DNA from: Candidatus Omnitrophota bacterium
GTDB lineage: Bacteria; Omnitrophota; Gorgyraeia; Gygaellales; Profunditerraquicolaceae
DNA: 64,000 nt
Direction: 5' to 3'
Assembly: GCA_028712255.1 (NCBI GenBank)
Contig: JAQTQJ010000002.1
Location: forward strand, 22,846-86,845
The translations under genes and the position numbers were made by a program. The notes below the pieces were generated by a model that was not told the DNA's origin, ran no database searches, and worked only from the letters and a program-made list of their open reading frames with translations. Shown here piece after piece: positions 1,326 through 50,628 of this stretch (its first letter is position 1; every line of letters begins with the position of its first letter).

Positions 1326-2786
1326 ATGCCTATTTTTATATATAATTCCCTCACAAGAAAAAAAGAAGAGTTTGTTCCTTTAAATCATCCGAAAGTAAAT
1401 ATCTATACTTGCGGCGTAACCGTTTATGACGATAGCCATATCGGGCATGCACGAAGTCTTTATATCTTCGATATAATCAGGAGATATTTAAAATACAGAG
1501 GTTTTGATGTTAAGTTTGTGCGCAACATTACCGATGTTGATGATAAAATTATCAACCGCGCAAACGAACTTAAAGTGCACTGGCAGGAATTGGTAAAAAA
1601 ATATATCGGCAGGTATTACCAAGATTTGGCGGCACTTGGTATTGAAAAAGGAGATTTTGAACCGCAGGCAACCGAGAATATCCCCGATATGGTTAGGTAT
1701 ATACAAACATTAATTGATAAAGGTTATGCTTATGCAGCAGGCGGCGATGTATATTTTAATGTGAGGAAATTTTCCGGCTATGGTTTGTTATCCGGGCAAA
1801 GCATAGATCAAATGGAAACCGGAGTCAGGATCGGCCCTTCGGAACTAAAGCATGATTCTCTGGATTTTGCGTTATGGAAAAAATCAAAAACTGGGGAGCC
1901 GTCCTGGGATAGTCCTTGGAGCCAAGGCAGGCCAGGTTGGCATATTGAATGTTCCGTAATGTCGCAGAAATTTTTGAAGACAGATACGCTTGATATACAC
2001 GCTGGCGGAAGAGACTTGATTTTTCCGCATCATGAAAATGAAATCGCCCAGGCTGAGGCACTCACCGGTAAACAGTTTGCCAAATACTGGATACATCACG
2101 GACTGCTGACAATTAATGGCCAGAAAATGTCCAAGTCGCTGGGGAATTTTGTTACGATAAAAGATGCATTAAGAAAATATCATCCCGATGTTTTAAAGTT
2201 GTTTTATCTTCAAGCTCATTATTCTAGTCCTATCGATTTCTCTGAGAAAAAGATGACTGAAGAAAAGCATCGATATATATCTTTTGTGCGCTTAAATGAT
2301 ATTTATAAAGAGTATAGAGCAAAGAATTTGAAAAAGGTACTAAGATTAAAAGATGTAGATATCGTAACCGTAAAAGAATATGAACATAAGTTTGAGAGTG
2401 CGATGGACGATGATTTTAATACACCACAAGTTTTAGCCGTTTTGGAACAGTTAAAGTCATATGCATATCATCTTCATGCCGATGATATAGTTAAGAATTG
2501 GCCTCAATTTAAATATTCGGTAGATACAATGAATCGTTTACTTCGTGATATTTTCGGTATGCATCCCGATATGGCCGACCTTATGGTGGATTCGAGATTC
2601 AGGGATATAATTGATGAAAATCTTAAAGATACTAAAATAATAGATGAAATGGTTAAAGAGCGTACGAGATTAAAGAAAGAAAAGAGTTTTACCGAGGCAG
2701 ATAAGATTAGGAAAGATTTAGAAGTAAAAGGTATTATATTAGAAGATAGGAAAGACGGTAAAACAGTTTGGAGATGGAATTTCTAG
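1326..2786 (+). CDS. cysS: Cysteine--tRNA ligase
   Basis: Class I aaRS HIGH motif (YTCGVTVYDDSHIGHARS) and KMSKS motif (KMSKSLGN). Start is ambiguous between 1311 (TTG) and 1326 (ATG). Confidence 0.9.
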   Translation: MPIFIYNSLTRKKEEFVPLNHPKVNIYTCGVTVYDDSHIGHARSLYIFDIIRRYLKYRGFDVKFVRNITDVDDKIINRANELKVHWQELVKKYIGRYYQDLAALGIEKGDFEPQATENIPDMVRYIQTLIDKGYAYAAGGDVYFNVRKFSGYGLLSGQSIDQMETGVRIGPSELKHDSLDFALWKKSKTGEPSWDSPWSQGRPGWHIECSVMSQKFLKTDTLDIHAGGRDLIFPHHENEIAQAEALTGKQFAKYWIHHGLLTINGQKMSKSLGNFVTIKDALRKYHPDVLKLFYLQAHYSSPIDFSEKKMTEEKHRYISFVRLNDIYKEYRAKNLKKVLRLKDVDIVTVKEYEHKFESAMDDDFNTPQVLAVLEQLKSYAYHLHADDIVKNWPQFKYSVDTMNRLLRDIFGMHPDMADLMVDSRFRDIIDENLKDTKIIDEMVKERTRLKKEKSFTEADKIRKDLEVKGIILEDRKDGKTVWRWNF

Positions 2787-2870
2787 CAGATGGTCGAAGT
2801 TATAAAGGATCAAGACGCTGTTGGTATTTTTTTATGAATGCATCGGGTTTAAGAGCGTTGATTTTGTAGC

Positions 2871-3278
2871 GTATCCCCCTCCCCTTGTGGGAGGGGAAAG
2901 GGGCGGGGTAGGTGAAGGGCAAATTGACATCCACTGCCAGGAAGTTAAGGAATAATTCCACAGAAACTGAAAAATGCCTCTGGCAGGCGCTTCGTTACCA
3001 TGGGCTTGGGGTTAAGTTTCGCAGGCAGGCTGTTATCGGCCGGTATATCGTTGATTTTGTATGTTTTGAAAAGAAATTGATTATTGAAGTTGACGGTGGA
3101 CAGCATTCATCATCACAGGAAGATATTGAACGTGATCAATGGCTGCTTAAGCAGGGGTTCAAGATTTTAAGGTTTTGGAATCATGATGTGCTTGGCAATC
3201 AAGAGGGAGTTTTATCTAAGATAGTTGATTCTTTAAAATTGCCCCCTCCCTATCCCTCCCCACAAGGGGGAGGGTATC
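2871..3278 (+). mobile_element. Compact DUF559-endonuclease cassette bounded by ~37-bp GC-rich imperfect inverted repeats, each itself a palindrome
   Basis: Left arm at 2871-2908 is gtatccccctccccttgtgggaggggaaaggggcgggg. The reverse complement of the right arm at 3241-3278 aligns to it at roughly 30 of 36 positions. The arms are far more GC-rich than their surroundings. Confidence 0.45.
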
Positions 3279-3298
3279 TCAATGGGATAAAATTATGA
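2912..3298 (+). CDS. DUF559 (endonuclease-domain, Vsr-like fold) protein
   Basis: Core VDF…EVDGGQH…D..RD..L…G..ILRF.N..V is typical of DUF559. GTG start sits directly after the left repeat. The C-terminal tail LPPPYPSPQGGGY is encoded by the right repeat and the stop overlaps the tmk ATG. Confidence 0.7.
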   Translation: MKGKLTSTARKLRNNSTETEKCLWQALRYHGLGVKFRRQAVIGRYIVDFVCFEKKLIIEVDGGQHSSSQEDIERDQWLLKQGFKILRFWNHDVLGNQEGVLSKIVDSLKLPPPYPSPQGGGYLNGIKL

Positions 3299-3903
3299 AA
3301 GGTAAATTCATTACATTCGAAGGGTCTGAGGGCTGCGGGAAGAGTACGCAGTCAAAAATGCTCTTTGACTGTCTTTTAGCAAAGGGGTTAAAGGTGATTT
3401 ATCTTCGCGAGCCCGGAGGTGTCAATGTAAGTGAAATGATTAGGGAGATATTGCTTAATCCTAAAAATAAGATATCTGCCGAAGCCGAGACTTTGCTTTA
3501 TATGGCTGCCCGCGCTCAAGTAGTTGAAGAGATTATTAAACCTGCGCTTATGGCGGAAAAAATAGTTATTTGCGATAGATTCATGGATTCAACTATTTGT
3601 TATCAGGGTTATGGATTAGGCATAGATATAAAATTAATTAAATCCATCGGTAATTTTGCTACTAGCGGTATAAGCCCTGATTTAACTATTTTTTTGGATC
3701 TACCTGTTAAAAGTGGGCTTAAATATCGGCATAAGTGCAAAGATCGTATCGAACAACGCTCTATCGGCTATCATGAGAAGGTGAGGAAAGGGTATCTTAG
3801 GCTTGTTAATAATGAGCCAGGAAGAATTAAGATAGTTAAGGTAGAAGAGAATAAATTTGAAACTCAAGCTAAAGTCAGGGAGATTGTGAATGCACTTTTC
3901 TGA
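3295..3903 (+). CDS. tmk: Thymidylate kinase
   Basis: P-loop FITFEGSEGCGKSTQ and the DRF…S motif. Confidence 0.9.
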   Translation: MKGKFITFEGSEGCGKSTQSKMLFDCLLAKGLKVIYLREPGGVNVSEMIREILLNPKNKISAEAETLLYMAARAQVVEEIIKPALMAEKIVICDRFMDSTICYQGYGLGIDIKLIKSIGNFATSGISPDLTIFLDLPVKSGLKYRHKCKDRIEQRSIGYHEKVRKGYLRLVNNEPGRIKIVKVEENKFETQAKVREIVNALF

Positions 3904-4849
3904 TATTTTAGGGCACAAAAAATCCTTAAACATAATCAATGCTTATATAGAAGGATCAAGCTTTTCCGGCGGATTTATCTTTAGCGGACCGGAAGGAATT
4001 GGTAAAAGAATGGTTGCCCAAGTTTGCGCTCAAAAATTAAATTGTACGGCTCAAAATGATAAACCATGCGGCTTATGTGTTGCCTGCCGCAAAATTGAAA
4101 AGCTAGAGCATCCCGATCTACATATTATCCAAAATGGCCAGTCGCAGATAAAAATTGAGGATATTCGTGGTATTTTGCGGGAGGCCAATTTTCGCCCGTA
4201 TGAGGGATCGATGAAGATTTTTATTATCGATAACGCGCATAAGCTTAATATAGAGGCGGCAAACTCACTGCTTAAAACGCTGGAGGAGCCACCCAAAGAT
4301 GTATTGATTATTTTAATAACGCATAAACCACAGAATATCATTAAAACTATTAGTTCTCGCTGTAAGCAAATAAAATTTTCTCCACTCGTAAGGGGGGAGC
4401 TTGAAACCATTTTGATTAAGGATTATTCTTTGGACAAGGCTGCTGCGCATTTCCTTAGTTTTTATTCCGAAGGCAGATTAGGCCTGGCTTTGAGATTAAA
4501 GGACTCTTTGTATCTGGCTCAAAAAAATAAGATATTTGATTCTTTTGTACTTTCTTCAAAGCCCCTTGAGCCTAATTTGATGGGGCAAAATAAGGAAGAG
4601 CTGCGTTCTTGTTTAAATATTCTTGCTTCCTGGTTCAGGGATATATATCTAATTAAGGCAGGATGTCCAGATAAAGAAATAATACATTTGGATAGGATTG
4701 GCGATTTATCAAAAATACACCTAAGATTTTCATTTAAACAGCTCGATGATATTATGGCGACTATATCGGATAGCTCGCTGTATTTGGAAAAAAATATTAA
4801 CAGTAAGTTACTCTTACACAACTTAGGAGCATTATGGCAGAGAACATGA
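3890..4849 (+). CDS. holB: DNA polymerase III delta-prime subunit
   Basis: AAA+ clamp-loader fold: GPEGIGK Walker A, a CGLCVACRKI zinc module, and the SRC motif (SSRCKQIKF). Confidence 0.85.
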   Translation: MHFSDILGHKKSLNIINAYIEGSSFSGGFIFSGPEGIGKRMVAQVCAQKLNCTAQNDKPCGLCVACRKIEKLEHPDLHIIQNGQSQIKIEDIRGILREANFRPYEGSMKIFIIDNAHKLNIEAANSLLKTLEEPPKDVLIILITHKPQNIIKTISSRCKQIKFSPLVRGELETILIKDYSLDKAAAHFLSFYSEGRLGLALRLKDSLYLAQKNKIFDSFVLSSKPLEPNLMGQNKEELRSCLNILASWFRDIYLIKAGCPDKEIIHLDRIGDLSKIHLRFSFKQLDDIMATISDSSLYLEKNINSKLLLHNLGALWQRT

Positions 4850-23181: not shown

Positions 23182-23586
23182 GGGGGTGAAAGGGTTCGAC
23201 TTAAGATATGTCGGATAAAAGCAGCATGCCGCGGACGCATGGTTAGCCGCGTTAATAATCCGTGCACAATTCAAACGCAAACACGACAGTGTCACGTTTA
23301 GGAACATTTGTCCAGCCGTCTTTTGCGGCTAGACCGATGTTTCTTCCAGCCTACTGCCCTAATTAAGGCAGTAGCCTCTAACCGTCCAGCCTACGGGATG
23401 GATTAGGGCCTTGGTAGGATAGTCTCGGCGGTTAGCCTTCCAAACTGGGATGAAATCGAAAAGGCTGCGCTTTGCAAATCCTGCCTTATAGAAGTTGCAA
23501 AGCTAAGACAAATTATAAGGCTAAGCATGTAGCGGCTTCTATTCGATTACTTAGGGACGGCGGTTCAATTCCGCCCACCTCCACCA
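23182..23586 (+). ncRNA. ssrA: Transfer-messenger RNA (tmRNA)
   Basis: 5' end GGGGGUGAAAGGGUUCGAC and 3' end GGACGGCGGUUCAAUUCCGCCCACCUCCACCA form a tRNA-Ala-like acceptor/T-arm with encoded CCA. The gene lies immediately downstream of smpB. The tag ORF could not be resolved. Confidence 0.85.
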
Positions 23587-30642: not shown

Positions 30643-30664
30643 TATAATAAAAGTTTACGCAATA

Positions 30665-30742
30665 CGGGGCGTGGCTCAGTTTGGCTAGAGCGTCCGCCAT
30701 TAGAACGTTGGCGGACGAGCGCCAAAGATTCAGTGGCGCTCG
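30665..30742 (+). other. 5' half of a tRNA-Pro-like gene (acceptor CGGGGCG plus D arm), followed by a 50-nt double-hairpin element, then disrupted
   Basis: cggggcg tg gctcagtttggctagagcg has the same D arm as the intact tRNA-Pro. Then tccgccattagaacgttggcgga + cgagcgccaaagattcagtggcgctcg. The matching 3' acceptor strand cgccccg is ~590 nt downstream at 31325-31331. Confidence 0.5.
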
Positions 30743-31000: not shown

Positions 31001-31003
31001 TAA

Positions 31004-31078
31004 CGGGGAGTGGCTCAGTTTGGCTAGAGCGCTTGCTTTGGGAGCAAGAGGTCGTGAGTTCAAGTCTCACCTCCCCGA
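31004..31078 (+). tRNA. tRNA-Pro (anticodon UGG)
   Basis: Cloverleaf with C1-G72 acceptor CGGGGAG/CUCCCCG, D arm GCUC-AGUUUGGCUA-GAGC, anticodon stem-loop CUUGC-UUUGGGA-GCAAG, T arm GUGAG-UUCAAGU-CUCAC, discriminator A. No encoded CCA. Confidence 0.85.
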
Positions 31079-31080
31079 CA

Positions 31081-31334
31081 TGTTAACGTATTGTATTTGG
31101 CTAGAGCGTCCGCCATTAGAACGTTGGCGGACGAGCGCCAAAGATTCAGTGGCGCTCGCTTGCTTTGGGAGCAAGAGGTCGTGAGTTCAAGTCTCACCTC
31201 CCCGACATGTTAACGTATTGTATTTGGCTAGAGCGTCCGCCATTAGAACGTTGGCGGACGAGCGCCAAAGATTCAGTGGCGCTCGCTTGCTTTGGGAGCA
31301 AGAGGTCACAGATTCAAGTCCTGTCGCCCCGATA
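31081..31334 (+). repeat. Two tandem ~127-bp units derived from the 3' three-quarters of tRNA-Pro, each carrying the identical 50-nt double-hairpin insert between tRNA positions 26 and 27
   Basis: Each unit is tgttaacgtattgta + tttggctagagcg + [50-nt insert] + cttgctttgggagcaag aggtc + T arm + acceptor 3' strand. Unit 1 ends ctcacctccccgaca, identical to the intact tRNA-Pro. Unit 2 ends acagattcaagtcctgtcgccccgata, complementary to the orphan 5' half at 30665. Confidence 0.6.
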
Positions 31335-31399: not shown

Positions 31400-31680
31400 G
31401 CGCCTGTAGCTCAAATGGATAGAGCACCTGCCTTCCAAAGGAGCCTCTATGGGGAAATAAAACTCATAGAGTGCATGTGGCTGTATGCAAGGAAATCCTT
31501 ATTTTTTAAGGATCACTTGCAGGCAACCCCCGCTATAAGCGGGGAGAGTCCTCAGAGACTATACGCCACACACCTGTAAAGGTGAAGACATAGTCCAGAC
31601 CGCAACAAGTGTTTCTGGCCGGAGTAATCCGGTGCGGTAAGCTAAGCCGGTTGTTGGCCGTTCGATTCGGCCCAGGCGCA
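31400..31680 (+). tRNA. tRNA gene interrupted in the anticodon loop by a ~207-nt group I intron; inferred tRNA-Arg (anticodon UCU) after splicing
   Basis: 5' acceptor GCGCCUG (31400-31406) and 3' strand CAGGCGC-A (31673-31680) are perfectly complementary across 281 nt. D arm GCUC-AAAUGGAUA-GAGC and T arm GGCCG-UUCGAUU-CGGCC are canonical. Exon 1 ends at …CCUGC-CUU (31434) and exon 2 begins after a G at CUAAGCCGG (31642). The anticodon assignment depends on the exact splice sites. Confidence 0.6.
31435..31641 (+). other. Putative group I intron (no ORF)
   Basis: Contains a P7-like pairing agACTAtacg … acaTAGTCcagac and several stem-loops (cctctatgggg/ctcatagag; cccgc-tataa-gcggg). Terminal G sits before exon 2 and a U before the 5' splice site. 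Size is comparable to the smallest known tRNA group I introns. Confidence 0.5.
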
Positions 31681-31817
31681 TTTAAATAGTATAAAGAATC
31701 GAACGGAAGGGGGTGTGGGGGAAAAGTGATGTCCCCCACGCTTTCGGGGTGACAGCGAACGAAGTGAGCGCCATAGGGGCAGAGCCCCTATGGGGAGCGA
31801 TCCGCCATAGGCGGAGC

Positions 31818-31846
31818 GCGACAAGTTCGATTCGGCCCAGGCGCAT
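31818..31846 (+). repeat. Direct repeat of the 3' end of the intron-containing tRNA (gttcgattcggcccaggcgcat), about 140 bp downstream
   Basis: A 22-nt exact copy of 31660-31681 preceded by a degenerate T-arm. The spacer is rich in small palindromes (cataggggcagagcccctatgg; tccgccataggcgga). Confidence 0.45.
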
Positions 31847-33096: not shown

Positions 33097-33160
33097 TCGT
33101 GGGTATAGCTTAGTTGTTTGCTCAGCGGTAGAGTCAGAGCGGTAGACTGTGGGCTATTTC
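33097..33160 (+). pseudogene. Degenerate duplicate of the 5' half of tRNA-His (acceptor through anticodon region)
   Basis: gtgggtatagcttag… matches the tRNA-His 5' end gtgggtatagctcag. Followed by gctcagcggtagag (D-arm-like) and gactgtgggc (anticodon-loop-like; intact gene has gactgtggctc). Confidence 0.45.
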
Positions 33161-33201
33161 ATTATTTTGATAAACTTATTGTTCTTTGATATAATTAAAT
33201 C

Positions 33202-33663
33202 ATGCCAAATCAAAAATGTAAGATTTGCGGTAAAGAATTCTATACAAAGCCTTTTCATGTGAAGAAAGGTTGGGGTAAATATTGTTCTATAAAATGTCGT
33301 TCTAAATCTCAATTTAATGGAAAATGGGTCAAATGCGTTAACTGCGGAAGGAAAATTTATAGGACCCCGCGTGATTATAGAAAATCAAAAAGCAAAAGAT
33401 TTTTTTGTTCAGTAGGTTGCCATTGTTCATGGGAAAATAAAAACGTGCGTTGTGGCGTTAATGCGCCAAATTGGATTGCTGGAGAAAATGCTTATAGGGA
33501 TATAATGAGAAGGTCCGGTATAGTAAAAAAATGTAATAAATGCGGAATAGATGATAAAAGAATTTTGGCAGTCCATCATAAAGACGGGAATAGAAAAAAT
33601 AATGTAATAGAAAATTTAGAATGGCTCTGTCGCAATTGTCATTTTATTGTTCATTGGTATTAG
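33202..33663 (+). CDS. HNH endonuclease
   Basis: N-terminal CxxC zinc knuckles (CKICGK, CVNCGR) and HNH core AVHHKDGNRKNNVIENLEWLCRNCH. Lies between the tRNA-His 5' fragment and the intact tRNA-His. Confidence 0.75.
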   Translation: MPNQKCKICGKEFYTKPFHVKKGWGKYCSIKCRSKSQFNGKWVKCVNCGRKIYRTPRDYRKSKSKRFFCSVGCHCSWENKNVRCGVNAPNWIAGENAYRDIMRRSGIVKKCNKCGIDDKRILAVHHKDGNRKNNVIENLEWLCRNCHFIVHWY

Positions 33664-33668
33664 TTTTT

Positions 33669-33746
33669 GGTGGGTATAGCTCAGCTGGATAGAGCACCTG
33701 ACTGTGGCTCAGGTTGTCGCGAGTTCGAATCTCGTTACCCACCCCA
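33669..33746 (+). tRNA. tRNA-His (anticodon GUG) with encoded G-1 and 3' CCA
   Basis: G-1 pairs with discriminator C73. Acceptor GUGGGUA/UACCCAC, anticodon stem-loop CCUGA-CUGUGGC-UCAGG, T arm GCGAG-UUCGAAU-CUCGU, then CCA. Confidence 0.9.
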
Positions 33747-34370
33747 TTTTTTATTTTGAGCATATAAAGCCTCCCAACTGGCCGTAGAATCAACGAGTTG
33801 CGTCGGTTCTAATCTGTTGTGGAGGCTTTGTACGTCAGGTGCCACACATTCGAACATGGCAAGGCACTTTTCCTGCTCAAATTGCAGTTTCTTGCCGTGT
33901 AAGACGAGTTTTGTGCCCAGACACGAGAGAACATACCGCTTGTCCTCTAAAGTGCCCGTGTCGAACCGTTTCTTGGCCGTTTGCGCGAACATAAACGCCT
34001 TATCCGCCCGATCCAGCCACGTTTCAGCCCTTGCCTGAGTATCGCCGATTAATTCCTCGTATTTCTGCTTTTCCTTGAGGATATCCTCTTTTTTCTTGGC
34101 GTATTCTTCCGCGCCGATCTCTTCGTTCAATCGCATATTAAAAAGCGCGTCTAATTTTTTAACGCAGGCGTCCAGATTATGCCGGTGCGCCTTGGTGATC
34201 TCATCGCGGTCGACTATTTCTTTTGATTGATCAGCTTTAAGTTGTTTTATCGCCCAATCCCGGAATTGCGGCGGTATGGTTATTTTGCCTAAAATGTCAC
34301 GGATTTGATTCTCAAGATCCTCTAAGCGTATAGGCGGCTCGGAGCAATCCCGTTTGATACTGCGCGCCCT
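33735..34370 (-). pseudogene. C-terminal fragment of a serine-recombinase-like protein (coiled-coil/zinc-ribbon region); N-terminal catalytic domain absent
   Basis: Open frame runs with no start codon from a TAA near 34370 to the first Met at 34136: …IRLEDLENQIRDILGKI…DEITKAHRHNLDACVKKLDALFNMRLNEE…. The 3' end overlaps the tRNA-His 3' end by ~12 nt, an integrase-next-to-tRNA arrangement. The family assignment is tentative. Confidence 0.45.
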
Positions 34371-34485
34371 TTATTGCACAGGAGGCTCCTTGTTAGAGGC
34401 TTATTCTATCAACTTTTCAAAGAACTTTTCGGCTCTTTAAAATCTAATAGTTGCACATAAATCGGGGAAGAACTTTAAAAAATTA

Positions 34486-34513
34486 TTGACATATTTAGTG
34501 AATATGCTAAACT
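34486..34513 (+). promoter_or_regulatory. Sigma-70-type promoter for the DUF134 operon, with a downstream operator-like palindrome
   Basis: TTGACA, 16-nt spacer, TAAACT. Followed by GTTATGcacatatgttCATAAC before the aggaggc RBS. Confidence 0.35.
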
Positions 34514-34550
34514 TGTTATGCACATATGTTCATAACGATAGGAGGCTATT

Positions 34551-34856
34551 TTGAGGCCAAAGAAAACTAGATGGGTAAAGTGTATTCCAGGTGAAAGGTG
34601 TTTTAAACCACTTTGTAAACCTTTAAATAAGCTGGAAGGGGTCTTTTTGACACTTGATGAGTTTGAGGCTGTGCGTCTAGCCTGTCTTGAAGGATTAAAA
34701 CAGGTAGAAGCGGCAAAGTTAATGAAGATTTCCCGGTCGACTTTCTCTAGAATTATTACTTTAGCGCACCGTAAGATAGCTGATGGATTAGTTAATATAA
34801 AAGCAATTAGGATTGAAGGCGGTTGCTGTAAGATTAAGGGGAGGGGCAAGCAATGA
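34551..34856 (+). CDS. DUF134 (UPF0251) predicted DNA-binding protein
   Basis: …CFKP…LTLDEFEA.RL..LEGL.Q.EAA..M.ISR.TF.RI…A.RK.ADALVNGKAIRIEGG is the conserved DUF134 pattern, a sigma region-4-like HTH. Confidence 0.75.
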   Translation: MRPKKTRWVKCIPGERCFKPLCKPLNKLEGVFLTLDEFEAVRLACLEGLKQVEAAKLMKISRSTFSRIITLAHRKIADGLVNIKAIRIEGGCCKIKGRGKQ

Positions 34857-36025
34857 AAGATTGGAAAAAGTTTCTATATATATTAGCAGCATTTCTGGCT
34901 TGTTTTTATCTGCCGGTAGAAAATATGCGTTTTAATAACGCGGTCTTTGAAGCATTAGCGCTTGTTAAGTGGTATGCGCGGGAGCACGTGCTCTTGTGTT
35001 TGGTTCCGGCTTTCTTTATTGCAGGAGCGATATCGGTGTTTGTCAGCCAAGCGTCAGTGATGAAGTATTTCGGCGCTAAGGCAAATAAATTTCTTTCCTA
35101 TAGCGTTGCCTCGGTATCGGGAACGATTCTAGCGGTATGCTCATGTACTGTGTTACCTTTATTCTCCGGTATTTATAAAAGAGGAGCTGGACTTGGTCCT
35201 GCGGTTGTGTTTCTTTATTCAGGGCCTGCCATAAATGTTTTGGCGATTATCCTAACAGCGCGTATTCTTGGCTGGCAGCTAGGGTTAGCACGAGCCATAG
35301 GCGCGGTTATTTTTAGTATTGTTATCGGATTGCTCATGCATTTAATTTTTCTTAAGGAGGAGCGCGCTCGCCATGCGAGCGGAGATTTACAATTAGGTGA
35401 GGTTAAAGTGACTCGGCCACTATGGAAAGATATTATTTATTTCTTCTCTATGGTCGCCATACTTGTTTTCGCCAACTGGGGGAGGCCTTTAGAAGGAGAT
35501 ACAGGAATTTGGAGTTTAATCTATGCTTCCAAATGGTGGATTACAGGATTTTTCTTAATAGTTTTAGGATTTAGTATTTTTAGGTGGTTTAAAAAGGATG
35601 AATTAAAGGAATGGACCGGAGCGACATGGGGTTTTGCGCTTCAGATTCTGCCGCTTCTTTTAGGAGGGGTGCTTGTATCTGGATTTCTTTTGGGAAGGGT
35701 TGGACATGAGGGGGTTATTCCTTCGCGGTTTGTTGAAATGCTGGTGGGAGGGAATTCCTTACGGGCGAATTTCTTTTCATCGATTGTTGCGGCATTTATG
35801 TATTTTGCCACATTAACCGAAGTACCTATTTTGCAGGGTCTTATTGGCTCCGGGATGGGCAAGGGGCCTGCTTTAGCGCTTCTTTTGGCGGGACCCGCTT
35901 TGAGTTTGCCGAGTATGCTGGTCATTCGGGGTATTATAGGTACTAAGAAAACGGTGGTATATGTGGCGTTGGTTGTGGTGATGGCGACCATAAGTGGCAT
36001 GATCTTTGGGGCGATAGTTAAGTAG
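34853..36025 (+). CDS. DUF318/ArsP-family permease (two-CxC membrane permease)
   Basis: Polytopic membrane protein with the intramembrane VCSCTVLPLF motif (compare the ArsP TPFCSC motif). Confidence 0.7.
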   Translation: MKDWKKFLYILAAFLACFYLPVENMRFNNAVFEALALVKWYAREHVLLCLVPAFFIAGAISVFVSQASVMKYFGAKANKFLSYSVASVSGTILAVCSCTVLPLFSGIYKRGAGLGPAVVFLYSGPAINVLAIILTARILGWQLGLARAIGAVIFSIVIGLLMHLIFLKEERARHASGDLQLGEVKVTRPLWKDIIYFFSMVAILVFANWGRPLEGDTGIWSLIYASKWWITGFFLIVLGFSIFRWFKKDELKEWTGATWGFALQILPLLLGGVLVSGFLLGRVGHEGVIPSRFVEMLVGGNSLRANFFSSIVAAFMYFATLTEVPILQGLIGSGMGKGPALALLLAGPALSLPSMLVIRGIIGTKKTVVYVALVVVMATISGMIFGAIVK

Positions 36026-36034
36026 ATAGGGAAA

Positions 36035-36919
36035 ATGCATAGAGAAAATAACAAAGAAAGTCGGCTAATTATATCTGCAGGGCTTAATTTGGTAACAACT
36101 GCAGCGCAAATTATCGGTGGTGTCTTTTCAGGAAGTCTTTCGCTGATCTCTGACGCGCTGCATAATTTAAGCGATACTGTGGCTTTGGTGATTAGTTTCT
36201 TTGCGGTGCGCCTCGCTAAGCGTAAGAATACCGAAGCCCAGACTTTCGGCTATAAGCGTGCTGAGATTCTGGCTGCGCTCTTTAATGCCTGCGCGCTGGT
36301 AGTAGTCTCAATATTTCTATTTAAGGAGGCCATTGCCAGATTTTCTCATCCGCACCCGATCAACGGCGTGCTTATGTTGTCTGTGGCTTCAGTTGGATTA
36401 ATTGCCAACATTGTTTCCGTATTTCTTCTTAAAGCGCATGCACATGAGGATTTAAATATACGGGCAGCATATGTACATCTTTTCTCTGATTTTCTTTCTT
36501 CTATTGCGGTAATTATTGGCGCCTTGGCGATTCTAATATCAAAAGCCTATTGGATTGACCCGGCTTTGACTATTCTTATTGGTATCTATGTATTGAGGGA
36601 AGGATATAAGATTATCGAAGAAAGCACCCGCATTCTCATGCAACATGTCCCAAAAAGAATAAACTTAAGGGAAATTCAGGCGCGCATAGAAGGAATTGAA
36701 GGAGTAAAAGACATTCACCACGCTCACCTGTGGGCGGTAACCGAACGGGATATTCATTTTGAAGCGCATATCAATGTATCGCGGGATATGCCGGTCAGCG
36801 AGACGTGTCTTTTAGTAAGGCAAGTAGAAGAAGCGCTTAAAGAAAGTTTCGCTATTACTCATGTGACTTTGCAGGTTGAGTTTAATTCGTGTAAAGGAGT
36901 TAGCTTGATTAAGGTCTGA
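36035..36919 (+). CDS. Cation diffusion facilitator (CDF) family metal efflux transporter
   Basis: Six TM helices with the HxxxD motif in TM2/TM5 (SDALHNLSD; HLFSDF) and a C-terminal cytoplasmic domain (HHAHLWAV). Confidence 0.85.
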   Translation: MHRENNKESRLIISAGLNLVTTAAQIIGGVFSGSLSLISDALHNLSDTVALVISFFAVRLAKRKNTEAQTFGYKRAEILAALFNACALVVVSIFLFKEAIARFSHPHPINGVLMLSVASVGLIANIVSVFLLKAHAHEDLNIRAAYVHLFSDFLSSIAVIIGALAILISKAYWIDPALTILIGIYVLREGYKIIEESTRILMQHVPKRINLREIQARIEGIEGVKDIHHAHLWAVTERDIHFEAHINVSRDMPVSETCLLVRQVEEALKESFAITHVTLQVEFNSCKGVSLIKV

Positions 36920-37113
36920 TATGGAGAAAAGAAAACTTATTATTCTTAATGAAGGAGATTTATTTAAAGTCGAGCAGATTGTTATTGACCGGGATAAAGA
37001 CGGAGCGCTGGATTTTGTTAAAGAAGTGATCAAGAAAAAAATCGACAGAGAAAATGCCTCAAAAATGAAACGGGAAGGTATATAGAAGGTATATAAGGAG
37101 GGTGGGTAATAAA

Positions 37114-37347
37114 ATGAAAATAGAAATTTTAGGGGTAGGTTGCCCAAAGTGTAAGCAATTAACCGCAAATGCAGAAAGCGCACTTAAGGAGCTTGGTATT
37201 TGCGTGGATATTGCCAAGATTACCGATATCGGTAAGATCACCGAATATGGGGTGATGATGACGCCGGCATTAGCAATTGACGGCACGGTGGTTTCGGCGG
37301 GTAAGGTATTAAGTAAGGATGAGATTAAAAAGATTCTCTCAAAATAG
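37114..37347 (+). CDS. Small thioredoxin-fold protein (TM0996/MTH895 redox-active disulfide protein 2 family)
   Basis: MKIEILGVGCPKC has the N-terminal CxxC, in a ~78-aa Trx-like protein. ATG 37114 lies behind a taaggaggg RBS. Confidence 0.65.
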   Translation: MKIEILGVGCPKCKQLTANAESALKELGICVDIAKITDIGKITEYGVMMTPALAIDGTVVSAGKVLSKDEIKKILSK

Positions 37348-37359
37348 GAAAGGATAAAA

Positions 37360-37770
37360 ATGTCAGCTAAAAATTGTATGTGTCAGGAAACAGGATTGTT
37401 GGTTTTTCCTTGTTCAGGCAGCTCGGATGTAGGAGAATTGTCTGATCGGGTTGGCAGAGCGATTGCCAAGTGCGGCCAGGCAAAGATGTTTTGTCTTGCC
37501 GGTATTGGGGCACATATTTCCGGGATGATTGAATCTGCCAAGGCAGCCAAGAAAATTATCTCTATTGATGGCTGCCCGGTTTCATGCGCCAAGAAGACGC
37601 TTGAGCATGCCGGCTTTAAAATCGAAGCATATAATCTCAAAGATTTGGGGTTTGAGAAAGGTAAGACCAAAGTCGATGAAAATTCTATTAAAAGTGCGAC
37701 ATCAAAAATAACAGGAGGAAAAATTGAAGAAACTATTACTCGTTCTTCTGGCGGTTGTTGTACTAAGTAG
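37360..37770 (+). CDS. DGC-domain putative zinc-binding protein
   Basis: IDGCPVSCA motif and additional conserved Cys (FPCSGSS; CCTK C-terminus). Confidence 0.65.
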   Translation: MSAKNCMCQETGLLVFPCSGSSDVGELSDRVGRAIAKCGQAKMFCLAGIGAHISGMIESAKAAKKIISIDGCPVSCAKKTLEHAGFKIEAYNLKDLGFEKGKTKVDENSIKSATSKITGGKIEETITRSSGGCCTK

Positions 37771-38161
37771 CGTTGGCATAATTTTTTCACCTCTAGCTCA
37801 AGCAGTAGAGAATGTGAATGGTGCGCATGTGGTTGTTTATTATTTCCATGGACAGATGCGGTGTCCGACCTGCCACAAGTTGGAGCAGTATTCAAAGGAA
37901 GTAATAGAAACTAACTTTAAGGATGCGCTTGCGTCCGGAAAACTGGAGTTTAAGGTTGTTAATGTGGAGGATAAAGGCAATGAGCATTATGGGAAGGACT
38001 ATCAGCTTTACACTAAATCTCTTATTCTGTCCTTAGTCAAAGATGGGAAGGAAGTAAAGTGGACTAATATGGATAAGATTTGGGAGTATGTTAGTAATAA
38101 GCCGAGATTTATTGATTATGTAAAGAGCGGGGTTACCGATTTATTAAGGGAAGCTAAATGA
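37724..38161 (+). CDS. Secreted thioredoxin-like protein
   Basis: Signal peptide (LLLVLLAVVVLSSVG), then a CPTC redox motif in a Trx-like context (VVYYFHGQMRCPTCHK). Confidence 0.5.
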   Translation: MKKLLLVLLAVVVLSSVGIIFSPLAQAVENVNGAHVVVYYFHGQMRCPTCHKLEQYSKEVIETNFKDALASGKLEFKVVNVEDKGNEHYGKDYQLYTKSLILSLVKDGKEVKWTNMDKIWEYVSNKPRFIDYVKSGVTDLLREAK

Positions 38162-38847
38162 CAGAGATGTTTATAAGCCTTGCGTCAGCTTTGTGGTTGG
38201 GAATTTTAACTTCCATTAGTCCGTGCCCTTTAGCCAGTAACGTGGCTGCCATTTCGTTTCTCTCTAAGAAAATAGCGCATCCGGCGCTGGTGTTTATTTC
38301 AGGTTTGGCGTATACGCTTGGGCGGATGGTTTCTTATGCTGTCCTGGGATGGATTATTATTAATTCACTATTAAGTGTTCCTCAAGTTGCCCAGTTCTTG
38401 CAGAAGTATATGGGTAAAGCTTTAGGGCCGCTGTTAATCTTTACCGGCCTCGTGCTGCTTGAGATAATACCACTTCGTCTTCCCGGGCTGTTGCTATCGC
38501 AAAAGCATCATAATAAGCTTGTAGAATCCGGCGCTCCGGGTGCCTTTTTGCTTGGTTTTATTTTTGCTCTGGCATTTTGCCCTATTTCTGCTGCGTTATA
38601 CTTCGGGAGTTTTATTCCTTTAGCGATTAACAGTGAAAGCGGTATCGCACTGCCATTCATTTACGGAATTGGAACAGGTTTGCCGGTTTTTGCATTTGCT
38701 GTTGCCATTGCCTTAGGCGTGACATCATTGAGTCATTGGTTTAATAAAATCACAAGGCTCGAATACTATACCCGAAAGATTACCGGGATCATATTTATCC
38801 TTGTTGGCCTGTACTATGCAGGAATATATATTCTGAGGTTATTTTAA
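38158..38847 (+). CDS. ccdA: CcdA/DsbD-family transmembrane thiol:disulfide electron transporter
   Basis: Six TM helices with the SPCP motif in TM1 (ISPCPLAS) and a second Cys in TM4 (FCPIS). Confidence 0.75.
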   Translation: MTEMFISLASALWLGILTSISPCPLASNVAAISFLSKKIAHPALVFISGLAYTLGRMVSYAVLGWIIINSLLSVPQVAQFLQKYMGKALGPLLIFTGLVLLEIIPLRLPGLLLSQKHHNKLVESGAPGAFLLGFIFALAFCPISAALYFGSFIPLAINSESGIALPFIYGIGTGLPVFAFAVAIALGVTSLSHWFNKITRLEYYTRKITGIIFILVGLYYAGIYILRLF

Positions 38848-38850
38848 GGT

Positions 38851-39663
38851 GTGCGATTGGAAATAAACAAGAGCAAACAGTATGAAATTATTGTTTTTCC
38901 GAATCAAGATGAGGGTTTAAAAGCCCAGGGAATCTTGATTTCTAAAGGGTTAGATTTTAAGCATATTTCTACTTTGGCAGTAGTTGTTACTGAAGAACAC
39001 AAAGAGACGGCGTGTTTGACTATTATTGATGGGGATGTGCTGATTAGCGGGTGCTATCCGTTTTTATATCGTGATTATGAAGAAGATTATTTTAAAAAAG
39101 CGCAAGAATATAAGGCGCTGGAATCAGACGATGAATTTCTAAAGAGTATCACGTTGTGCTATGTGGCTCCCTGCATGGCCGATGAAAAGAAAATCCGGCT
39201 CATCGGATACCTTGACCGGGATATTACGGAAATCTTGCCGTATATTAATGCTGTTATTAAGGGCGCTTCATATAACAAGAACGCTTCCACATTGACCTAC
39301 GCCAAAGAACGTCAAATGATTAATCTTTATAATATTAAGATTACCGTTGCCAAGGCAGGCGATATTATTGATGCCTGGGTCGTTTTAGATGAAGTTAAGA
39401 AGTTGATTAACGACACGTATCGTAGACGCGATAGCATCAAGCCTAATTACGAAGAAAAAGTTAAAGTAACGGCGCTTCAAATCTATGGTTGGCTTCCTAA
39501 AACTAATTGTAAGGCATGCAGGGAAGCGACATGCCTTGCTTTTGCGTGCAGGCTTTTATTGGGAGAACAGAAACTTTCAAACTGTACACCACTGTCAACG
39601 GAACCAAAATTTTCCGAGAATAATAAAATTATGCAGGAGATGGCAGAAGCATTAGGTGTTTAA
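38851..39663 (+). CDS. Hypothetical protein with a C-terminal Cys cluster ([14 protein letters not shown])
   Basis: GTG start. No family recognised. The Cx2Cx4Cx4C tail and position between ccdA and acr3 suggest a metal(loid)-binding role. Confidence 0.4.
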
Positions 39664-40864
39664 AGATAGTGAAAGAAAGGATAAAAACATGGAGAGAGCT
39701 GTTCATGAAGAAAGGCATCTAGGAGTATTTGAGAAATATCTCACGCTTTGGGTTTTTGTATGTATTGGATTAGGTGTATTGACCGGTAAAGTTGCTCCGC
39801 AGGCGGCCAAGTTGCTTGATGGTATGGCGATTTATGTAAATGGAGCCCCGGTAGTTTCAATTCCGATCGCGATCTGTTTATTTTTCATGATGTATCCCAT
39901 AATGGTCAAGATTGATTTTGCCGAAGTCATCAAAGCCGGGAAATCCCCAAAACCGGTATGGCTTACACTTTTCGTGAATTGGGCAATCAAGCCTTTTACG
40001 ATGTATGCCATAGCTTATATTTTTCTGGGAATTTTGTTTAAAGGGTTTATTGGTGTAGAGGCGATGGATTTTGTTAAGCTTCCTCCCGGGGCTGACTGGT
40101 TGTTGGGTTCCATCCATGGTTCAGGAACAGTGGTCATGCATGAAGGTTTAAAGGTTCTTCAGGTGCCGCTGTGGCGTAGTTATTTCGCGGGTTGTATTCT
40201 GCTGGGGATTGCTCCCTGTACCGCCATGGTTTTAGTTTGGGGTTTTTTGGCTAAAGGCAATGATGGTCATACCTTGGTGATGGTGGCGATTAATTCACTA
40301 ACTATGCTTTTGCTTTACGGAGTTTTAGGCGGGTTTCTTTTGGGTGTTGGAAGGATGCCGGTTCCCTGGCAGGCGTTATTATTATCGATCGTTATTTATG
40401 TGGCATTGCCTCTTATCACAGGATACTTTTCGCGGAAGTTGATTGTAGCGCTAAAAGGTATAGAATGGTTTAATAAGAAATTTTTACATGTATTGAGCCC
40501 GGTTTCAATTATTGCGCTCTTGTTTACGCTTGTGCTTTTGTTTTCCTTTAAAGGGGAGATTATCCTTGGGCAGCCGTTAACTATCCTTTGGATAGCGGTT
40601 CCGCTTTTTATCCAGACTTGTTTAATATTTATAGTCACCTATTGGCTGGCTAAAAAGTTAAAATTAAAATATGAGGATGCGGCTCCTTCAGCGATGGTGG
40701 GGGCAAGTAATCATTTTGAGGTGGCGATTGCTACCGCAACCATGCTATTTGGTATTTCTTCAGGGGTAGCGCTGGCGACCGTGGTCGGGGTATTGATTGA
40801 AGTGCCGGTAATGCTGATGTTAGTCAAGTTTTGCTTGCGGACACGCAGTTGGTTTACGCGTTAG
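39656..40864 (+). CDS. acr3: ACR3-family arsenite efflux transporter
   Basis: …[12 protein letters not shown]… and 10-TM BART-superfamily topology typical of Acr3/ArsB(ACR3). Confidence 0.8.
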
Positions 40865-40898
40865 CGATATTCACAACCTTGCTTTAACAGGAGAAAAC

Positions 40899-41321
40899 AT
40901 GATGGACAAAAAACGGGTTTTATTTATTTGTGTGCATAATTCGGCAAGGTCTCAAATGGCCGAGTCCTTTTTAAAAGAGATGGCGGGGTATAAGTTTGAG
41001 GTTGAAAGTGCTGGCCTTGAGCCGGGCAAGCTAAATCCCGTAGTTGTCGAGGTCATGAGAGAGGTAGGTATAGACATTTCGCAGAATAAGACCAAGAGCG
41101 TTTTTGATTTCTATAAACAGGGCAAACAATATGATTACGTCATTACTGTCTGCGACGAATCGCAGTCAGGCGCATGTCCTGTGTTTCCTGGTAAGGGCGA
41201 GCGGCTTCATTGGGGATTTGATGATCCTTCTGGGTTTCAGGGAACATGGGAGGAGAAGCTAGAGAAAATAAGGCAAGTGCGAGATAAGATAAAACAAAAA
41301 ATTATCGAATGGCTTAAATGA
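40899..41321 (+). CDS. arsC: Arsenate reductase (LMW-PTPase family, thioredoxin-coupled)
   Basis: VLFICVHNSARSQMAE P-loop (CX5R) with downstream Cys pair (CDES…C). Confidence 0.85.
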   Translation: MMDKKRVLFICVHNSARSQMAESFLKEMAGYKFEVESAGLEPGKLNPVVVEVMREVGIDISQNKTKSVFDFYKQGKQYDYVITVCDESQSGACPVFPGKGERLHWGFDDPSGFQGTWEEKLEKIRQVRDKIKQKIIEWLK

Positions 41322-41328
41322 ATGATCC

Positions 41329-41781
41329 ATGTGGGAGTCATACAGAGACATCATCCGGAGCTATCCTAGAATTCCCCTCTTTGAAGAAAGGCGTTTGATT
41401 CTCAAAGCTCAAAAAGGTTCAAAGAAGAGTAAAGATGAGCTTGTCCTTAGCCACGTTAGTTTTTTAATCTTTAGAATCCATAAAATCGCATTTCCTTCGT
41501 TGGTTCGGTCCTTTGGAGAGGATCTACTAGCAGAAGCTATCCTTATCGTTTATAAGAAGATCGAAAGCTATGACCTTAATTACTGTGATAAGCATGGCAA
41601 TCCTAATCCAGTTAAATTTACTTCTTACATTTGGAAGCGAATCGATGGGTTCATAATCGATGCTTTAAAGAAAGAGCTCAGCGAGTCAAATTATTACGAT
41701 AGATACAGCGGATACGTCCTTAAAAATGGGGATTTATCGTTTATGTCCGGGTCAATAGAGTCGGACAATTTTATCTCTTGA
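41329..41781 (+). CDS. Sigma-70 region-2-only protein (sigma-factor-like; region 4 absent), paralog 1
   Basis: EERRLILKAQKGSKKSKDELVLSHVSFLIFRIHKIA…GEDLLAEAILIVYKKIESYD…FTSYIWKRIDGFI follows the sigma-70 region 1.2/2.1-2.4 pattern. The ~150-aa length leaves no room for regions 3 and 4. Confidence 0.55.
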   Translation: MWESYRDIIRSYPRIPLFEERRLILKAQKGSKKSKDELVLSHVSFLIFRIHKIAFPSLVRSFGEDLLAEAILIVYKKIESYDLNYCDKHGNPNPVKFTSYIWKRIDGFIIDALKKELSESNYYDRYSGYVLKNGDLSFMSGSIESDNFIS

Positions 41782-42887: not shown

Positions 42888-43460
42888 ATGCTGCAAAGCT
42901 TAATAGCTTCAAAAACTCGTCAAACTCTTCTTAAGGCATTCTTTGAGGCGCCTGAGATAGAGTATTATACCCGCCAATTAGCTAGTAAATACCATATGTC
43001 TGTTGGGACGCTTCATAGGGAACTGCAAAAACTGAGTACCTCTGGGATACTTAAATCACGTAAAATCGGTAACATAAAGCTGTTTTCCTTAAATAAACAA
43101 AATTCTATTTATGAAGAAATTAAAAACATTATTTCTAAAACGCAAGGGGTAATAAGGTTTATAAAAGATGCCTTATTTGGCATAAAAAGCATTAAAGTTG
43201 CTTTTATATACGGTTCTCTTGCTAAAGGAGATGAGCGGCAAGACAGCGATGTAGATATATTTTTGATAGGGGATAGTATAGATGATAATGAATTGGTGAT
43301 AAAAATTAGCAGTCTGGAAAAGAAATTATTTAAAGAAGTTAATTATACATGTTATACAGAAAATGAATACAAAAAGGAAAAAAAGAAAAAGAATTCGTTT
43401 GTTTTAGAAGTAATAAAGGGCAAAAAGATATTTATCAAAGGAGATGAAGGTGACCTCTGA
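42888..43460 (+). CDS. Winged-HTH plus minimal nucleotidyltransferase (MNT-type antitoxin-like) protein
   Basis: N-terminal HTH (…LASKYHMSVGTLHRELQKL…), then the nucleotidyltransferase motif GSLAKGDERQDSDVDIF. Confidence 0.7.
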   Translation: MLQSLIASKTRQTLLKAFFEAPEIEYYTRQLASKYHMSVGTLHRELQKLSTSGILKSRKIGNIKLFSLNKQNSIYEEIKNIISKTQGVIRFIKDALFGIKSIKVAFIYGSLAKGDERQDSDVDIFLIGDSIDDNELVIKISSLEKKLFKEVNYTCYTENEYKKEKKKKNSFVLEVIKGKKIFIKGDEGDL

Positions 43461-50196: not shown

Positions 50197-50628
50197 GTGG
50201 ATATTCTTCGGCGTTATCCTAGAATTTCCCTATCTGAAGAAAGACGTTTGATTCACAAGGCTCAAAATGGTTCAAAGAAAAGCAAGGAAGAGCTTGTATT
50301 GCGTCATGTTGGCTTTGTAATTTTTAGAATTCACAAAGTAGCGTTTCCTGCCTTGATCCAGAGATTTGGAGACGACCTGCTTGAAGAAGCCATCCTGATT
50401 ATCTATAAAAAAATCGAAAGCTATAACCTTGATTACCGCGATAAGAAAGGCAATCCTAATCCGGTGAAATTTACCTCTTACATTTGGAAACGGATCGATG
50501 GTTTTATAATCGTTTCATTAAAGAAGGAGCTTGGCGAGTCAAATTATTACGATAGGTATAGCGGATATGCCCTTAAAATTTATAAAAAGACACTTTCCAG
50601 CATAAAATTGGTGCAGTTTTCTGATTGA
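50197..50628 (+). CDS. Sigma-70 region-2-only protein, paralog 2
   Basis: About three-quarters identical by eye to the 41329 paralog over the whole protein (EERRLIHKAQNGSKKSKEELVLRHVGFVIFRIHKVA…FTSYIWKRIDGFII). GTG start. Confidence 0.55.
   Translation: MDILRRYPRISLSEERRLIHKAQNGSKKSKEELVLRHVGFVIFRIHKVAFPALIQRFGDDLLEEAILIIYKKIESYNLDYRDKKGNPNPVKFTSYIWKRIDGFIIVSLKKELGESNYYDRYSGYALKIYKKTLSSIKLVQFSD

Follow-up and report, generated by a model that had tools for sequence, protein, structure and literature searches.

A putative HNH homing cassette and a serine-recombinase remnant on either side of tRNA-His in an Omnitrophota genome

Homing endonuclease genes usually spare their host by residing in introns or inteins, or by occupying intergenic positions. 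The tRNA gene cluster of phage T5 houses free-standing homing endonucleases, namely the HNH nicking enzymes F-TflI, F-TflII and F-TflIV. Endonucleases of phage tRNA clusters such as T4 SegB, a GIY-YIG enzyme encoded by a small, intron-free gene between or beside phage tRNA genes, are favoured in inheritance through breaks in the tRNA-gene DNA of alleles that lack them (PMC13096335, PMC2988022). In fungal mitochondria, partial duplications of atp6 and cob enclose degenerated LAGLIDADG open reading frames (ORFs) (PMC6279837), and HNH genes have been reported within group I introns of Patescibacteria tRNA genes in a paper that nowhere mentions tRNA-His (PMC13011429). Here we describe a locus within a 64,000-nt stretch of a Candidatus Omnitrophota bacterium genome (assembly GCA_028712255.1, contig JAQTQJ010000002.1, positions 22,846 to 86,845; hereafter the window), in which an HNH endonuclease gene lies between a 5' relic of tRNA-His and an intact tRNA-His gene—the latter abutting the remnant of a large serine recombinase. 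Our search of the literature on HNH/tRNA-His cassettes, free-standing tRNA-gene endonucleases and Omnitrophota homing endonucleases, incomplete in coverage, returned no description of such a unit.

The locus resembles each of these systems in part. As with SegB, its small endonuclease gene is intron-free and sits beside tRNA genes; unlike the phage tRNA-cluster endonucleases, it is found in cellular chromosomes of two phyla, is tied to one tRNA species, leaves a 5' relic, rebuilds the tRNA and carries its own consensus promoter, with a protein identity to phage copies of at most 37%. As in the fungal mitochondrial case, the endonuclease ORF lies between a full and a partial gene copy and mobile DNA supplies the missing part, but there the 3' ends of organelle protein genes are concerned, whereas here a bacterial tRNA 5' part is supplied together with leader and promoter. 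The Patescibacteria tRNA introns share phylum range, enzyme superfamily and tRNA-gene target with the window locus, which in contrast is devoid of an intron and keeps tRNA function by duplication rather than splicing. At the protein level, the window motif VHHKDGNRKNN..NLEWLC aligns with residues 71–94 of I-HmuI from phage SPO1 (PDB 1u3e)—a weak match (E 0.09) over 24 residues—but the N-terminal DNA-binding part differs, being made up of two FCS/MYM-like zinc fingers in the window protein. Finally, the recombinase side is comparable to serine-recombinase islands at tRNA genes: intact orthologues of the window remnant share with them the domain set, an excisionase-like neighbour and the tRNA 3' end, whereas the window retains only the C-terminal 211 codons, and no partner attachment (att) site was found in it.

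We interpret the locus as two unrelated mobile elements flanking tRNA-His, with an HNH homing cassette on the 5' side and a degraded serine-recombinase element on the 3' side, and we assign this interpretation a probability of roughly 0.72. In terms of known classes, the HNH unit is a free-standing homing-type endonuclease with target-gene reconstruction that belongs to a known enzyme superfamily, and the integrative element represented by the recombinase remnant is degraded and of an ordinary type. The HNH unit is likely an active cassette of the free-standing homing-endonuclease type with tRNA-His genes as its specific target, cleavage being predicted. The comparisons establish the architecture of the locus, its conservation, its presence and absence at a fixed site, horizontal movement, purifying selection and a breakpoint inside the relic. 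The coordinates of all features are collected in Table 1.

Table 1. Features of the tRNA-His locus and of the neighbouring tRNA-Pro locus, in window coordinates.
Feature	Position	Strand	Basis or remark
tRNA-His 5' relic, tRNA positions 1–43	33099..33157	+	Direct repeat, alignment, covariance model R1
Linker of 15 nt from relic anticodon to -35 hexamer; degenerate positions 37–43 and junction with cassette DNA (~43/44)	33152..33166	+
Promoter-like site TTGATA-17 nt-TATAAT with TG before -10	33167..33195	+	11/12 consensus matches in scan
HNH endonuclease gene, 153 aa/codons; two FCS/MYM-like zinc fingers and zinc-braced HNH core	33202..33663	+
Putative HNH cassette	33152-33668 and at least the tRNA 5' part
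Intact tRNA-His(GTG) with encoded G-1 and CCA	33669..33746	+	ARAGORN, Rfam, covariance model R1
Large serine recombinase remnant, residues ~314–524 of 524	33735..34370	-	Homologues, intact orthologues
Probable inserted block, possibly cargo	34371..41325	.	Pfam matches on several ORFs; synteny
tRNA-Pro 5' relic	30664-30692		97% identical to 31003-31031
Two-hairpin module of 48 nt interrupting the tRNA-Pro relic	30693-30740
GIY-YIG ORF, 83 aa	30749-31000		Pfam E 6e-18
Intact tRNA-Pro	31004-31079

ARAGORN called tRNA-His(GTG) at 33670–33746, preceded by G-1 at 33669 and ending in an encoded CCA at 33744–33746; the Rfam tRNA family (RF00005) matched 33670–33743 as a full cloverleaf with 65.3 bits against a gathering threshold of 29, and covariance model R1 (A3/R1), which was built on 25 genuine tRNA-His 5' parts, scored the same gene at 64 bits. 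For the copy ahead of the HNH gene, the segment 33091–33116 repeats 33662–33687 with 85% identity over 26 nt (8 nt of leader plus the first 18 tRNA bases), and local alignment of the relic to tRNA-His gave z = 7.2, a score reached by none of 200 shuffles. Moreover, model R1 matched 33099–33157 with 20.7 bits (E ~7e-6 over the whole window), covering positions 1–43 and modelling an 18-nt D-loop insertion. The D-loop insertion itself spans ~25 nt (33117–33141) and is hairpin-like, with similar inserts occurring in some other loci; position -1 of the relic (33098) is C instead of G, and the anticodon GTG is present at 33149–33151. The generic Rfam tRNA model did not report the relic at E ≤ 10 in a scan of 29.5–35.5 kb, as expected because it is a half-molecule with an insert.

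The intervening ORF encodes an HNH protein. Pfam HNH_3 matched it with 27.5 bits (cut-off 24.8, E 2.4e-6), and phrog_1271, a family of phage HNH endonucleases, matched residues 4–149 at E 1.4e-13. Many of its close homologues have the same length, and an alignment of 25 sampled ones, in which 41 columns are invariant, places the protein in the HNH superfamily: residues H125, H126, N133/N134, N138, H147 and H151 do not vary, nor do the two CxxC pairs bracing the core (C111, C114, C143 and C146), and a further set of cysteines (C6, C9, C28, C32, C45, C48, C69 and C73) is conserved or invariant. The N-terminal 100 residues consist of two C-x2-C...C-x3-C modules that resemble FCS/MYM fingers, and sequence matches in the PDB were to an MYM finger (2das, E 0.006) and, for the core, to the I-HmuI entry cited above. 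The AlphaFold model of the protein had a pLDDT of 84, and a Foldseek search of the PDB with this model gave weak local matches only, of use for the HNH core alone (best E 0.26: DotN, Cap5 and Gme HNH). The wider zinc-finger HNH superfamily is large, comprising 15,898 representative clusters at E ≤ 0.001, and the core linked to tRNA-His amounts to only 34 clusters at E ≤ 1e-30. An assignment to anti-phage defence as Zorya ZorE was considered and rejected: the PADLOC ZorE models match only the 38-residue HNH core with 26–29 bits, the NCBIfam ZorE model gives 23 bits against a cut-off of 600, and no Zorya partner genes lie nearby.

An earlier note on this DNA, made from the sequence and its ORFs, had described an intact tRNA-His with G-1 and CCA, a displaced and decayed copy of its 5' half, and a 153-codon HNH ORF with N-terminal zinc knuckles between them. 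All three descriptions hold, with the addition that the decayed copy includes the anticodon and is alignable to tRNA-His under a covariance model of the 5' part, the generic Rfam model being silent on it. As for expression, the HNH ATG lies 6 nt past the -10 hexamer without a ribosome-binding sequence; the HNH message is therefore probably leaderless and, judging from the layout, probably runs on into tRNA-His, from which RNase P might release the tRNA.

To place the window locus in a broader context, we scanned for the HNH family in one genome per species and obtained 135 matches (at least 135 species-level genomes), from which 80 loci were fetched; individual loci are designated below by L and a number. 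These loci derive from Omnitrophota and many lineages of Patescibacteria, all uncultured bacteria. In 76 of the 80, a same-strand tRNA-His(GTG) follows right after the HNH gene, mostly with a gap of 3–14 nt from the HNH stop and sometimes slightly more—5 nt in the window. A tRNA-His 5' part ahead of the HNH gene was found in most Omnitrophota and several Patescibacteria loci, with z values up to 32, and the relics are decayed or interrupted in about half of the loci. In 27 loci the geometry is fixed: from G-1 to the anticodon GTG, exactly 15 nt, the -35 hexamer, 17 nt, the -10 hexamer, 6–7 nt and an ATG or GTG start. The promoter arrangement TTGACA-N17-(TG)nTATAAT, followed by 6–7 nt and ATG/GTG, is conserved across the Omnitrophota loci, and the window locus fits the conserved geometry base for base. 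A search of viral contigs and cultured phages yielded only distant HNH relatives with identities of at most 37%, and therefore did not point to any phage as a vector of the cassette. Two of these distant relatives (L147 and L148, viral contigs, 2001–4000; 37% identity) end 5 nt before tRNA-Pro, the first gene of a 12-tRNA array, which suggests that linkage to tRNA genes is general in the wider HNH protein family.

The same geometry bears on whether the HNH gene could be what is left of a group I intron-encoded endonuclease whose ribozyme decayed, with a duplicated tRNA-His rescuing function. Such an origin is made conceivable by the group I intron that splits the neighbouring tRNA-Arg(UCU) in the window, by the report that tRNA genes of Patescibacteria harbour group I introns with HNH genes (PMC13011429) and by the relic ending near the anticodon arm, the usual place of tRNA introns. 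However, an Rfam search found neither Intron_gpI nor any other RNA family between 33097 and 33670 at E ≤ 10, and the same search did find the tRNA-Arg intron at 31424–31617. The ~45 nt on the 5' side of the ORF are filled by the promoter and only 5 nt remain on the 3' side, leaving no room for a ribozyme; the junction at 43/44 lies outside the anticodon loop; and the same layout recurs in more than 50 loci without intermediates carrying pieces of an intron. We therefore regard an intron remnant as very improbable.

To avoid selecting loci on the HNH gene itself, an unbiased sample of 58 metagenomic loci was fetched with the upstream DUF748 gene, using its C-terminal half. Fifteen of these carry the HNH gene, and 38 have tRNA-His 10–40 nt past the DUF748 stop (a few with other inserts). 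Occupied and empty sites are collinear from the DUF748 stop on, with leader and relic of the former matching leader and tRNA 5' part of the latter (the window relic, too, is collinear with the empty sites of its relatives), and the flank on the 3' side of the intact tRNA is the same as the empty-site flank. It follows that the added DNA consists of the promoter, the HNH gene, a new leader and a tRNA 5' part, joined to the resident sequence at about position 43/44. In a DUF748 tree, loci with and without the HNH gene are thoroughly interleaved, with sister pairs that differ in its presence (L122 with, L123 without; likewise L023/L114, L125/L121 and L098/L106). The L122/L123 pair is particularly informative, the two loci being near-identical up to tRNA position 26, where one breakpoint falls inside the relic; from there the sequences differ through the remainder of the relic and the cassette, over the entire intact tRNA and for ~200 nt past it, before converging again. 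Such a pattern is characteristic of an exchange that took place through homologous recombination.

Further evidence for horizontal movement comes from the discordance between the HNH gene and its host marker. HNH and DUF748 identities correlate only loosely (Spearman correlation 0.33). Near-identical hosts carry HNH copies that are 70–79% identical (e.g., L113/L116, with 98% for DUF748 and 79% for HNH), whereas hosts with 38–50% identity carry HNH copies that are 88–91% identical (e.g., L138/L024, with 38% for DUF748 and 88% for HNH); the window and L008 share 88% identity in HNH and 54% in DUF748. In addition, the relic and the functional 5' part within one genome may belong to different tRNA-His types, and both combinations occur (L047 versus L050 and L052). 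The family thus shows both presence and absence at a fixed site and gene-host discordance as expected of a homing gene, the latter measured on DUF748 as the single host marker.

The constant junction at 43/44 indicates the boundary between anticodon stem and variable loop as the probable site of action. When all tRNA-His alignment columns were scanned in the DUF748-chosen sample, the sole feature associated with the cassette was an extra T in the variable loop, 4–5 nt to the 3' side of the junction, present in 11 of 13 loci with the HNH gene versus 7 of 38 without it (p = 3.7e-5, uncorrected and with shared ancestry ignored); a variable loop of at least 6 nt was likewise associated with the cassette (p = 8e-4, shared ancestry ignored). 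As a universal mark of immunity, variable-loop length was ruled out by exceptions, and we treat it as a local association.

On this basis, we propose that the cassette sits at position 43/44 of the resident tRNA-His, whose leader and positions 1–43 would stay behind as the relic. The cassette would import a near-consensus promoter, the leaderless HNH gene, a new leader and a replacement tRNA 5' part (often more, via co-conversion). With promoter, leader and 5' part supplied in this manner, an intact tRNA-His would be rebuilt just past the HNH stop and co-transcribed with the nuclease gene. The nuclease may cut or nick an empty tRNA-His allele near positions 44–48, and the break would then be repaired from the occupied allele, copying the cassette in—homology being provided on the left by the relic and upstream DNA, and on the right by the intact tRNA and downstream DNA. 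Besides introns or inteins and intergenic positions, endonuclease genes would in this way have a third means of entering an essential RNA gene present in a single copy: the target is reconstructed and expressed together with the nuclease. The nuclease is small (153 aa), with a probable specificity for one defined DNA sequence that is highly conserved, and the cassette, widespread in two poorly known phyla, is predictable from sequence. For genome annotation, the arrangement implies that where tRNA 'fragments' accompany a small nuclease gene in these genomes, they are traces of such elements and not assembly errors.

A bolder possibility, which we put forward only tentatively, is that the cassette behaves as a gene-drive-like unit that replaces tRNA alleles by destroying the sensitive tRNA-His and delivering a resistant allele with a strong promoter. 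Were this the case, the only tRNA-His gene of the cell would depend on the element, the relic would serve as a cross-species homology arm, perhaps also as an operator, and endonuclease genes would have a general intron-free route into essential RNA genes. The same principle might then extend to a GIY-YIG/two-hairpin unit found at tRNA-Pro and tRNA-His, and to a non-coding insert of ~160 nt in tRNA-His (both described below).

The degree of conservation of the cassette raises the question of whether the HNH protein could instead be a domesticated host factor for tRNA-His—a processing, quality-control or regulatory nuclease—with the relic acting as a regulatory mimic or operator. In keeping with such a role, the linkage between gene and tRNA is very tight across two phyla, and purifying selection is strong: 92 of 96 HNH copies are full length (of the other four, three run off the end of a contig and L072 has an N-terminal truncation), the median dN/dS is 0.12, with most pairs saturated at synonymous sites, and the window gene gives 0.04–0.11 against its nearest copies. 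The distance between relic and promoter is fixed, the relic lying just upstream of the -35 hexamer. In the 18 loci with canonical relics, a set that leaves aside about half of the loci, the mean pairwise difference was 0.14 for the relic, as compared with 0.46 for the linker, 0.58 for the promoter spacer and 0.61 for four-fold synonymous sites; relics in canonical loci must therefore either be maintained or have arisen recently as copies of a conserved tRNA. However, the HNH gene is missing from 38 of 53 close relatives with an otherwise identical locus and is therefore dispensable, it passes between host lineages, and the low divergence of the relic is also expected of young tRNA copies or of a retained homology arm. 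The decay or interruption of relics in about half of the loci is a further point against this reading. A host factor is, in our assessment, unlikely.

We next turn to the 3' side of tRNA-His. The minus-strand frame that enters the tRNA is open for 211 codons, with its first start codon only at 34136, and its stop lies inside the tRNA-His 3' end, such that the last codons (WGG-stop) are the reverse complement of that end. The fragment has no Pfam match of its own, but its homologues (E 1e-115 to 1e-86) carry PF13408 Zn_ribbon_recom. Two loci, L034 and L129, contain intact 524-aa orthologues with Resolvase, Recombinase and Zn_ribbon_recom domains that end in KKWGG-stop inside tRNA-His and are followed, on their far side, by an HTH/excisionase-like gene; the window fragment is 87% identical to the former and ~69% to the latter. 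Compared with these, the window frame is without the catalytic, recombinase and most zinc-ribbon domains, keeping the last ribbon cysteine and the C-terminal region; missing the resolvase catalytic domain, it is a remnant and not a functional member. Against the intact L034 orthologue it shows a dN/dS of 0.13 and no frame damage, and the truncation is therefore recent relative to the divergence between the window and L034. A stand-alone family of short proteins was initially conceivable, as the first protein search returned only proteins of at most 298 aa, and is refuted by the two intact orthologues.

At least three different serine-recombinase lineages abut the tRNA-His 3' end in relatives, with lineages other than that of the remnant occupying the same junction in L025, L017, L122, L123 and L135. 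Across this junction, occupied sites read CCACCCCA followed directly by TTTTTT, and empty sites read CCACCCCA followed by G(T/C)A. Differently truncated C-terminal recombinase pieces, with intact frames and dN/dS of 0.12–0.19, also occur in many genomes (L001–L007, L036 and L042), and not always beside a tRNA: the piece in L001 is elsewhere, and those in L002–L005 lie within a prophage-like region, beside a different HNH gene. Such pieces may be simply young or may be retained. In L025 (3530–5265), a 477-aa serine recombinase ends in tRNA-His and has a ~200-nt inverted copy of its own 3' end just past its start codon, an arrangement suggestive of a minimal element with inverted repeats at its ends or else of a segment that can invert.

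Since relic, HNH gene and recombinase remnant all lie within 1.3 kb, they might be parts of one degraded integrative element, the relic being a second copy of its attachment site. Integrases that target tRNA genes leave partial tRNA duplicates, which fits this idea. The recombinase is nevertheless absent from most loci with the HNH gene, and a recombinase or its remnant is found at tRNA-His without HNH gene or relic (L006/L007 and L123). Furthermore, the recombinase joins the tRNA at its 3' CCA end and not at 43/44 and, to our knowledge, serine integrases do not create 45-nt duplications. We consider a single element the least credible of the alternatives; because the remnant occurs without the HNH gene in L006/L007 and the cassette mostly occurs without a recombinase, the two elements are independent. 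The integration event on the 3' side would have involved an element with a large serine recombinase that entered at the tRNA-His 3' end, its recombinase later losing the N-terminal 313 codons.

Beyond the remnant lies a block of genes for a DUF134 regulator, an ArsP-type permease, a cation-efflux protein, thioredoxin-like and redox proteins, an ACR3-like transporter and ArsC. The region downstream of tRNA-His is highly variable among relatives. In L101, tRNA-His is followed by an insertion sequence (IS) and then by a 74% homologue of the window gene at 41329–41781; in L041, a homologue of the same gene is located 132 nt past tRNA-His, and in L139 a homologue of 42888–43460 is located 157 nt past it. 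These positions suggest that 33747–41325 is an insertion. The arsenic/metal-resistance block up to ~41325 would then be what remains of the recombinase element, or a partial replacement of it. The gene at 41329–41781, which lies at the edge of the putative island only 7 nt past the ArsC stop, and the one at ~50197–50628 are paralogous small genes resembling sigma-70 region 2. Overall, tRNA-His appears to be a landing site for serine-integrase islands as well, here with arsenic and metal resistance genes.

The earlier note had also recognized, on the minus strand, the start-less C-terminal fragment of a serine recombinase and had taken tRNA-His as an attachment site; the open frame, the Zn_ribbon_recom homologues, the intact orthologues and the several recombinase lineages abutting the tRNA 3' end substantiate both. 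Its proposal of a degraded integrative element survives for the recombinase remnant, but not for the relic and the HNH gene, which form a separate unit. Similarly, the suggestion that an island at 34.5–41.3 kb is cargo stands as far as an insertion is indicated by synteny (L101 and L041), and finds no backing in a delimiting repeat or in compositional contrast. The strong divergent promoter claimed for the DUF134 operon corresponds to a promoter-like site at 34486–34513 ahead of the DUF134 ORF, which agrees with the consensus at 10/12 positions with a TG element and is a consensus match only.

Several observations weigh against the two-element interpretation. On the HNH side, the rebuilt tRNA-His is complete (positions 1–76), the relic being without positions 44–76; insertion alone would therefore leave a target within the tRNA intact. 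The extra variable-loop T, as a possible mark of protection, is absent from the window tRNA (which has a 5-nt loop), from 16 of 40 Omnitrophota genome loci with the HNH gene and from all Patescibacteria loci. A homing gene that is purely selfish does not usually show such a lack of decayed copies, which could reflect a host-level function instead. Besides, the host marker used for discordance, the DUF748 C-terminus, is a single fast-evolving gene and not a species tree. On the recombinase side, a search across the window for copies of the tRNA-His 3' end and for inverted copies of the recombinase end found none, and hence no second att site. The composition of 34.4–41.3 kb is undiagnostic (GC content 0.418 versus 0.394 for the window, with a tetranucleotide distance at the 80th percentile). 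Finally, the synteny marker at 41329–41781 has the above-mentioned paralogue. With neither a delimiting repeat nor a compositional signal, the case for cargo depends on synteny.

A second locus in the window, around tRNA-Pro, displays the relic-ORF-intact tRNA layout with a GIY-YIG gene in place of the HNH gene (Table 1), in agreement with the claims in the earlier note that the two loci share one architecture and that two endonuclease families have settled at tRNA genes here. The GIY-YIG gene is present in L014 and missing from L008, L011 and L013. A related two-hairpin plus GIY-YIG module was found in the tRNA-His gene of L111, and a version without the ORF in L137. The segment 31030–31332 contains two perfect 127-nt tandem copies (31030–31156 and 31157–31283) and a degenerate partial third; each unit is composed of the two-hairpin module and the tRNA-Pro 3' part, which Rfam reports as partial tRNAs with 28 and 21.5 bits.

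The tRNA-Arg(UCU) gene at 31402–31680, missed by ARAGORN, is split by its group I intron (Rfam 68.5 bits, 31424–31617) between positions 34/35; its joined exons equal the intron-less sequence of L011, and the intron is shared with L013 and L014. The 3' end of this tRNA is repeated ~140 nt downstream (31817–31840). Another type of insert, a structured non-coding sequence of ~160 nt without an Rfam family at E ≤ 1, follows tRNA-His position 16 in L096 (3290–3463), L103, L130, L136 and L138 (3810–3995), with the leader and positions 1–16 duplicated and an intact tRNA-His rebuilt downstream. In L138 this insert lies between the HNH gene and the tRNA, and L136 additionally has short tandem repeats. 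Elsewhere in the window, ARAGORN reported a transfer-messenger RNA (tmRNA) at 23182–23586 whose tag peptide, VQPTGWIRALVG, does not resemble the alanine-rich tags commonly encountered.

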